From assembly GCA_964486045.1 (NCBI GenBank), contig CAZALK010000002.1, positions 160,001 through 224,000 of the forward strand: a DNA stretch of 64,000 bases, given 5' to 3'. This stretch comes from an uncultured archaeon. Its GTDB lineage: Archaea; Asgardarchaeota; Lokiarchaeia; Sigyniarchaeales; SOKP01. The notes under the pieces were generated by a model. That model made no database searches and was not told where the DNA came from. It saw nothing but the letters and a program-made list of their open reading frames with translations. A program made the position numbers and the translations under genes. Below, piece by piece: positions 46,594 through 47,665 of the stretch; within the stretch, counting starts at the first letter, position 1, and each line of letters opens with the position of its first letter.

Positions 46594-47649
46594 TTAAACG
46601 AGGATATCGGAACTTATATCTTGTAATGTTTTACAATTTACCATCTTCATAGCTTTCTGAAGGGTTTTCTGCATATATTCCATATGAAGCTGTACTCCTT
46701 TAATACCTGCTCCAACAGAAGCTCGAATAATGTCACGTCCGATCAGAACAGAATCAGCTCCAAGTGCCAGCATTTTTAATACATCATAACCATTACGAAT
46801 TCCACCATCAACCATAATTTTAATCTTACCCTTCAATTCTGCAACAATCTGAGGTAAAATTTCTGCAGTTCCAGGAGTATAATCTAAGACTCTTCCACCA
46901 TGATTGGAAACAACAATAGCTGATACTCCAGCTTCCATAGCTTTAAAGGCATCCTCAATACACATTACTCCTTTTATTACAATCGGAAGTTTTGTCGAAG
47001 AAACTAATTCTTTGATATCATCAATAGATTTTTTAAACACAGGTTTATTATGAGTAGCCATTGCATATGATCCACAGCCATCTATATCTATACCAACAGC
47101 AATACATCCAGTGGTTTCTGCCTTTTCAAAAAACTTAATTATTGTTTCTTGTCCTCTAGGTTTTACAATTTTTACCCCATGTCCATCAGCTTCAGCAATA
47201 GCATTAATACCATATGTATTTTCAAGGGAATAAGTATAAGTATCTCCTCTCCATCCTATTGATCCCGCATCCTTACATCCCTGAACAACGGCAGAACAAA
47301 AGTCTTGTTCAGTAATAACTTCATCACCCCCAAAACTATTAACTCCTGCAACACTAGCACCCATTATTGGCATTGTTAATTCTTTTCCAAAAAAGTTATG
47401 GCGTGTATCAACAGTAAAATCTTCTTCCATTAATTTCATTTTTAATTTATATTTTCTAAGTGCTAAAAAATTGTTGTTAAAACTAGCTCCACTTCCAATT
47501 CCTCCAATACCAAGAGCTCTCCCATAACTCTGCCCTTGACAGAGTCTACGAGGGTCTCCATCGCAATCTTTGTAGACTCCACATATCCCTTTTAACTTGT
47601 CTCTCGCAATTTTCCTAACATCTTCTAGTGTTTTAATTTCAGGCGTTAT
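46594..47649 (-). CDS. FMN-dependent alpha-hydroxy-acid dehydrogenase family protein
   Basis: IKGVM, VVSNHGGR, DGGIRNGYDVLK, IGR. The frame extends 70 codons upstream of the first ATG (..ARDKLKGICGVYKDCDG...GIGGIGSGASF.NN..AL); start at ATA 47649 after GAGGTGA. Confidence 0.85.
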   Translation of the reverse strand: MTPEIKTLEDVRKIARDKLKGICGVYKDCDGDPRRLCQGQSYGRALGIGGIGSGASFNNNFLALRKYKLKMKLMEEDFTVDTRHNFFGKELTMPIMGASVAGVNSFGGDEVITEQDFCSAVVQGCKDAGSIGWRGDTYTYSLENTYGINAIAEADGHGVKIVKPRGQETIIKFFEKAETTGCIAVGIDIDGCGSYAMATHNKPVFKKSIDDIKELVSSTKLPIVIKGVMCIEDAFKAMEAGVSAIVVSNHGGRVLDYTPGTAEILPQIVAELKGKIKIMVDGGIRNGYDVLKMLALGADSVLIGRDIIRASVGAGIKGVQLHMEYMQKTLQKAMKMVNCKTLQDISSDILV

Positions 47650-47665
47650 ACGTTCACCTCAAAAA

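Follow-up and report, generated by a model that had tools for sequence, protein, structure and literature searches.

Putative near-cognate start codons behind Shine-Dalgarno sequences in a Loki-type Asgard archaeon

A conserved gene probably lacking a canonical start codon

Where does translation of a gene begin when its conserved reading frame runs for 70 codons before the first ATG, GTG or TTG? The question is raised by an FMN-enzyme gene in an Asgard archaeal metagenome-assembled genome (MAG; G000, 5.18 Mb in 45 contigs, ~31% G+C, 99% completeness, 7.8% contamination). Two of its small contigs, C40 and C45, have ~58% G+C against 31% elsewhere and are probably contamination. The gene lies in the window, the whole stretch of 64,000 nucleotides analyzed here (C2:160001-224000), on the reverse strand at 46594..47649. 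It encodes a 351-residue protein of the FMN-dependent alpha-hydroxy-acid oxidase/dehydrogenase family (PF01070; 214.5 bits against a gathering cut-off of 24.9), which bears out the FMN-enzyme assignment of a preliminary description made from the DNA letters. The product falls under every NCBIfam equivalog cut-off, and by that measure is not LldD, lactate oxidase or MftD. Its upstream neighbor is a fumarase gene (Lyase_1 and FumaraseC_C; 47666..49057, reverse strand), and the FMN enzyme is grouped on this strand with fumarase, citrate synthase and aconitase (41547-49057). In most ortholog loci the fumarase adjoins the FMN enzyme, a hint that the substrate may be a TCA-linked hydroxy acid.

The gene opens with GAGGTGA-ACGT-ATA-ACG, exactly as first described. 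The Shine-Dalgarno (SD) sequence GAGGTGA (47654..47660, reverse strand) overlaps an in-frame TGA (47661-47659) and is complementary to the 3' tail of the 16S rRNA, GATCACCTCC, from which the SD consensus GGAGGTGA follows. After the spacer ACGT (47653-47650, reverse strand) come ATA (47647..47649, reverse strand), 4 nt from the SD and 16 nt from the fumarase stop, an arrangement common to most ortholog loci, and then ACG (47644..47646, reverse strand), 7 nt from the SD. The first canonical codon (ATG, GTG or TTG) is the ATG at 47439, which is codon 71. The 70 conserved codons before it (47440..47649, reverse strand), absent from database proteins, hold three cysteines and a Gly-rich segment, both of them in frame as the preliminary description had it.

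Which of the two codons would serve as the start? ATA is the probable one. Parsimony favors it because it is one transition away from ATG, residue 2 of the orthologs is usually Thr, and orthologs use the 4-nt spacing here; ACG would then be the ancestral second codon (Thr). A start at the neighboring ACG is a distinctly less likely reading, in favor of which stand its distance of 7 nt from the SD, within the genome-wide spacing peak of 6-7 nt, and several orthologs that begin at the second position, together with one (L031) that has ACG at 6 nt. Possibly both codons are used.

The same position in relatives

The contigs that carry named orthologs belong nearly all to MAGs of Promethearchaeota (Loki-type Asgard). 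Comparison of 32 distinct orthologs, a check that the preliminary description had proposed, places a canonical codon exactly at the ATA in 20 of them (ATG in 19, GTG in one), and 8 of these 20 have the layout of GGTGA, 4 nt and ATG or GTG. Most of the remaining orthologs have a canonical codon one position off the ATA slot. Two share the peculiarity of this gene. L040 has GGTGA, 4 nt and ATA, and its sole upstream canonical codon falls within the end of the fumarase; in L046 the ATA stands at the second position, and the first canonical codon is codon 11. In the tree, well-supported branches part both of them from the G000 gene and pair each with a canonical-start relative, so that ATA has probably arisen more than once.

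Three further sites in the window

The preliminary description had listed three other intact genes with a near-cognate codon at SD spacing: ATT at 9368 (reverse strand), CTG at 14479 and ACG at 50242 (both forward strand). All three stand where they were reported, each 2-5 codons past an in-frame stop and 6 nt after an SD-like element, and ortholog alignments uphold them. In the first gene (8295..9379, reverse strand), whose product has a weak similarity, under cut-offs, to RDH/QueG-like Fe-S proteins, GGTGA (9379-9375) is followed by 6 nt and ATT. Ten homologs have ATT (seven), ATA, ATC or TTG (one each) in this slot, mostly 6 nt after GGTGA or GTGA. Its first canonical codon is an ATG at codon 10 that encodes an unconserved Met; taken alone, with an ATG only 9 codons on, this is the weakest of the four sites. 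The second is a ubiquitin-conjugating E2-like gene (PF00179; 14466..15042, forward strand) with CTG behind GGGGT and no canonical codon before codon 42; among 23 orthologs the slot holds ATG in 15, TTG in six, and CTG and ACG in one each. The third encodes a GH3 glycosidase (50231..52428, forward strand), with ACG 6 nt after AGTGA and the first canonical codon at codon 31. The ACG is retained in a sister strain of 98.6% identity, and the closest ortholog (G013, 77%), the sole informative close one, has AGTGA, 6 nt and ATG.

The many TTG starts that had been remarked upon are also borne out: TTG is the first canonical codon in 17 of 51 called window genes and, genome-wide, accounts for 56 of the 258 canonical starts that follow a strong SD. 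Elsewhere in the window, a peroxiredoxin/thioredoxin-like frame of 171 codons (45650-46165, forward strand) has a single in-frame TGA, which takes the place of the first Cys in its redox motif (U-x-x-C), and is probably a selenoprotein gene; a tRNA-Sec gene was found on contig C15. The TGG-TGA of this frame resembles the SD GGTGA and is one false positive of the SD scan.

A genome-wide excess at Shine-Dalgarno spacing

From these four sites the preliminary description had deduced a relaxed start-codon selection, driven by the SD, throughout the lineage. Do such codons stand behind SDs across the genome more often than expected? The genome-wide scan that it proposed finds an excess specific to both frame and spacing. 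About 4,420 genes were called with a dicodon model of our own, and the in-frame codons behind SD matches were tallied. Of the 58 non-canonical sense codons, ATT, ATC, ATA and ACG show the strongest enrichment at 3-7 nt (p 6e-7 to 5e-4), and they keep the top four ranks among genes whose first canonical codon lies 25 or more codons on; at 12-16 nt from the SD, the genome-wide control, none of the four is enriched. A matched test was confined to 130 genes that have an SD of at least 5 nt and lack a canonical codon at the slot or close to it. Behind these SDs, ATA, ATT, ATC, ACG or CTG occupies 89 of 248 in-frame positions against 53 of 460 out-of-frame positions (p 4e-14), and 83 near-cognate genes are observed where 27 are expected, the opposite of the lack of excess that would have spoken against the proposal. 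The spacing of the near-cognate codons peaks at 6-7 nt, like that of ATG, and a control spacing of 13-18 nt shows no effect (9% in frame versus 13% out of frame). AAG, AGG and TTA are not enriched genome-wide in this test, nor is CTG genome-wide when taken alone. The relaxation of codon choice is thus narrower than first described, mainly concerning ATA, ATT and ATC (ATH), with ACG and CTG minor.

Two artifacts that could mimic such a signal were excluded. An ATT or ATA lying in the spacer just before the real ATG does not explain it, as the first canonical codon was required to be at least 8 or at least 25 codons away, and the 13-18 nt control disposes of Ile-rich coding sequence. A mixture estimate gives ~71 near-cognate genes, or 22% of slot starts behind SDs of at least 5 nt, and ~36 more behind 4-nt SDs. 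Genes that lack an SD, or have a chance TTG upstream, are invisible to an SD test, so the resulting ~2% of genes is a lower bound. Judging from these counts, some 70-110 further genes in this genome very probably begin at ATA, ATT or ATC, and more rarely at ACG or CTG, behind an SD. They include an actin-family gene with a phosphate-loop motif (C24:48523-49665, forward strand), which has ATT behind an SD and its first canonical codon 48 codons on.

How far does the SD account for this use of codons? SDs of at least 5 nt mark only ~10% of the genes. The near-cognate share rises with the length of the SD match, from 6% at 4 nt to 15% at 5 nt and 37% at 6 nt, and is 23% at 7-8 nt (n = 7 genes). 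The earlier claim that the SD is the driving force holds to the extent of this rise between 4 and 6 nt, which is a correlation and concerns SD-bearing starts only. Translational coupling was rejected as a general route, near-cognate starts being less often operon-internal than canonical ones (23% versus 44% within 30 nt of an upstream gene, p 5e-4); coupling to the fumarase 16 nt upstream could help the start of the FMN enzyme itself.

Pairwise comparisons speak to the age of these starts. In a strict test in which the first canonical codon of the relative had to be ATG, a design that leaves it nearly blind, the genome lacks a canonical start in 2 of 185 clean-ATG relative pairs (with ATA and TTA), so recent switches from ATG to a near-cognate codon are uncommon. 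A looser search for conserved extensions returned 51 of 921 orthologous genes, many of them conserved UTRs or fragments, and was not used as a count. The near-cognate signal comes mostly from starts common to the genus, and many are old. The codons are real and conserved; more of them than expected occupy in-frame positions at the spacing of an SD, and their share is tied to SD strength.

Spread within the lineage

Near-cognate shares of 23% and 20% are found in two other members of the genus (G006, 800 kb, and G023, 400 kb), and of 17%, from 5 genes, in a genome of the same order (G032). The share is 3% in a genome of family f9 and 4% in one of family f5, both small samples from outgroups richer in G+C (49% and 39%), so that composition and machinery are not separated in the comparison. 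Near-cognate starts look to be present at a low level elsewhere in Asgard and to be more frequent in the order of this genome; its share counts as unusually high when judged against these two Asgard outgroups and the literature. Ortholog alignments at the four window sites and the genome-wide excess both support the lineage-wide near-cognate initiation that was first suggested. The FMN-enzyme gene is in all likelihood intact, with a near-cognate start, and one case of a lineage-wide habit.

The initiation machinery and aIF1

Could a defect in the initiation machinery be responsible? The preliminary description had pointed to aIF1, aIF1A and aIF2. Open frames exist for each of these factors (aIF2 with its alpha, beta and gamma subunits), for aIF5B and for uS9, which ends in Arg, and no broken or missing factor accounts for the relaxation. 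A Sui-type loss of fidelity was rejected on the same grounds, no factor, uS9 tail or initiator tRNA being absent or visibly damaged. An altered initiator anticodon was rejected as well: the sole initiator-type tRNA found (C1:583602) has a plain CAU anticodon on a stem with three G-C pairs; it also has A1:U72, and its intron lies at 37/38. ARAGORN labeled this intron-containing tRNA as Ser. Many tRNA genes of the genome have introns, several apparently outside 37/38, and ARAGORN misassigns them (Pyl, Stop, Ser). The aIF2-gamma protein (C1:76553-78154, reverse strand, 534 aa) has an N-terminal extension of ~120 aa, also present in G006, which resembles helix-hairpin-helix repeats with a Lys/Pro linker and is similar to the N-terminus of another protein of this genome.

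The aIF1 gene (C1:612478-612693, reverse strand) itself has an ATT start. An in-frame stop lies 8 codons before the zinc-knuckle Cys, and no canonical codon follows for another 48 codons. The ATT, 6 codons before this Cys, is found in all 21 genus members that could be read, as well as in three further genera of the family; beyond the genus, the family has ATT in 11 further copies and ATA in 2. In other Asgard families the apparent aIF1 start is CTG in 6 of 9 f9 genomes and in both f6 genomes, and ATA in f11, f17, one f16 and one f2 genome; most of the remaining families have ATG, GTG or TTG. The aIF1 protein of this family also departs from 47 other Asgard sequences at F47 (G in 96%), A62 (L in 100%), S68 (C in 87%) and R73 (K in 96%). 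The LQGDH motif is intact in it, as are basic loop 1 and the lysines of the helix. A62 and S68 are common to family f2, and f9 and f5 are without them.

A mechanism can be sketched from these elements, in which we infer that initiation does take place at the near-cognate codons. Pairing of the SD with the 16S tail would position the 30S subunit, and the ordinary Met-tRNAi (CAU) would accept a codon with one mismatch and insert Met, the mismatch falling mostly at the third position (ATA, ATT, ATC) and more rarely at the second (ACG) or first (CTG). Such starts would probably be weaker than ATG and would persist mainly behind strong SDs, with AT-biased mutation as a possible source of the codons. 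An aIF1 gene that starts at AUU would be in keeping with a feedback loop holding stringency at a permissive level, comparable to that of bacterial IF3. In vitro, the aIF1 of Sulfolobus selects against AUU, and weak start codons allow both IF3 and eIF1 to restrain their own production (PMC4705826); on these precedents an aIF1 feedback may reasonably be inferred. That stringency set by aIF1 acts as a regulatory system is an analogy we put forward tentatively.

Alternative explanations

Gene callers choose Met71, the first canonical codon, as the start of the FMN enzyme, and the best Pfam and PDB stretches are C-terminal, which would suit a protein that begins there below a stretch conserved for non-coding or incidental reasons. 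However, that stretch is conserved as protein. Against six orthologs, codons 6-70 have 86-92% identity and a pN/pS of 0.05-0.11 (pS 0.46-0.65, pN 0.03-0.07), compared with 76-82% and 0.19-0.30 in the rest of the gene, so the segment that a start at Met71 would skip is the most constrained part of the protein; nearly all orthologs have a canonical start upstream of it. A start at Met71 is highly improbable. Could the ATA instead be an assembly error, or mark a gene dead or dying after a recent loss of its ATG? A single transition would suffice, and the MAG has the 7.8% contamination given above. The preliminary description had named reads or close relatives with ATG or TTG as evidence that would count for such an error. 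However, a Logan contig from SRR8799001, built by an independent assembler, is identical to this genome over 3,846 nt, and the contig of a sister strain in SRR8799000 (98.6% identity) retains ATA-ACG, with three of its five differences within the gene at third codon positions. The frame is intact, its terminal branch of 0.16 is comparable to those of relatives, and the low N-terminal pN/pS is that of a constrained protein. Error cannot yield a frame- and spacing-specific excess across the genome or an invariant ATT in 21 aIF1 genes, and this very improbable explanation is largely refuted.

Editing of ACG to AUG, and of AUA to AUI, is known from other systems, and anticodon modifications are invisible in DNA, so that edited mRNAs, or an initiator tRNA that is altered or additional, might make these codons cognate. 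Five codons would require several distinct edits, though, the only initiator-type tRNA found reads CAU, and the ranking of ATH over ACG over CTG fits decoding with a single mismatch; this route is very unlikely. A point against the one-mismatch model is a small number of ortholog pairs with TTA, two mismatches from ATG, in the slot. In two isolated cases, genes 3054 and 3168 on contigs C12 and C13, TTA occupies the place taken in a relative by an SD-preceded ATG or TTG. A variant with rather more to be said for it, if still doubtful, would attribute the relaxation to the lineage-specific changes in aIF1 and not to feedback or SD strength alone. F47, A62, S68 and R73 differ at positions nearly invariant in the 47 other Asgard sequences; family f2, with A62 and S68, has a raised share (~17%, 5 genes), and f9 and f5, without them, have 3-4%. 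However, the motif, loop and lysines named above are intact, and the comparison sets two lineages against two, with no independent replicates.

Relation to known systems

The closest precedent for near-cognate starts with SD support comes from Staphylococcus aureus, in which infC, cvfC1, ccpN and citZ have AUU or AUA starts behind strong or extended SDs, with ~10-30% of AUG output (PMC13009471). The codons, the SD support, the conservation among relatives and the neglect by annotation are alike. The differences are that four sites were identified there by Ribo-Ret, whereas 70-110 genes are estimated from sequence here, and that IF3 acts there while this genome has the archaeal aIF1/aIF2 machinery. 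The conserved weak start of aIF1, a stringency factor, recalls the E. coli infC AUU and the poor-context autoregulation of eIF1 (PMC4705826). Unlike in those cases, AUU is not special to aIF1 here, as dozens of genes use it, and several Asgard families start aIF1 at ATG, GTG or TTG. Among archaea, ribosome profiling of Haloferax volcanii, in which harringtonine proved effective, found ribosomes at near-cognate codons, which made up ~30% of 160 putative alternative sites; the authors set these aside as possible false positives (PMC7261190). Those sites are alternative ones, while in this genome a full-length conserved protein could start nowhere else than at the near-cognate codon. Weaker start codons accompany stronger SDs in prokaryotes (PMC5622118), a relation described for AUG, GUG and UUG only, and near-cognate starts here also go with stronger SDs. 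The literature covered, which lies mostly outside subscription journals, yielded no paper describing near-cognate starts in Asgard archaea or an aIF1 with an AUU start. In bacteria, a few genes per genome are known to have a near-cognate start after a strong SD, and this genome would be notable for the scale of such use and for its lineage.

Consequences for annotation and for Asgard biology

The systematic mis-annotation that had been predicted is evident in the window, where three of the four genes (the FMN enzyme, ATT 9368 and ACG 50242) are stored truncated in public collections. The FMN enzyme is called as a 281-aa truncation on both the SRR8799001 and SRR8799000 contigs, and stands in this form in NCBI, ENA and Logan. 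At least 2% of the proteins of this genome, actin and ubiquitin E2 among them, would be shortened by callers limited to ATG, GTG and TTG, and truncated Asgard proteins affect expression constructs, structure predictions and claims of missing domains. SDs are considered rare in Lokiarchaea (PMC7531240). Near-cognate starts may blur that impression, although SDs of at least 5 nt still mark only the tenth of genes noted above.

A broader reading, which we hold only tentatively, is that in Promethearchaeales ATH, ACG and CTG may be routine, tunable starts for about one in five genes with a strong SD, actin and translation genes among them, with a stringency set by an AUU-started, lineage-substituted aIF1. 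Eukaryotic initiation is strict and prokaryotic initiation looser. With an Asgard archaeon that has a complete aIF1/aIF2 set, a wide tolerance of AUH and an AUU-started aIF1, the origin of start stringency and of eIF1 autoregulation becomes testable, be it in cultured Promethearchaeales or with reconstituted systems. If starts are indeed tuned through aIF1, start-stringency feedback would exist in all three domains, and a prokaryote closely related to eukaryotes would use it for global regulation.
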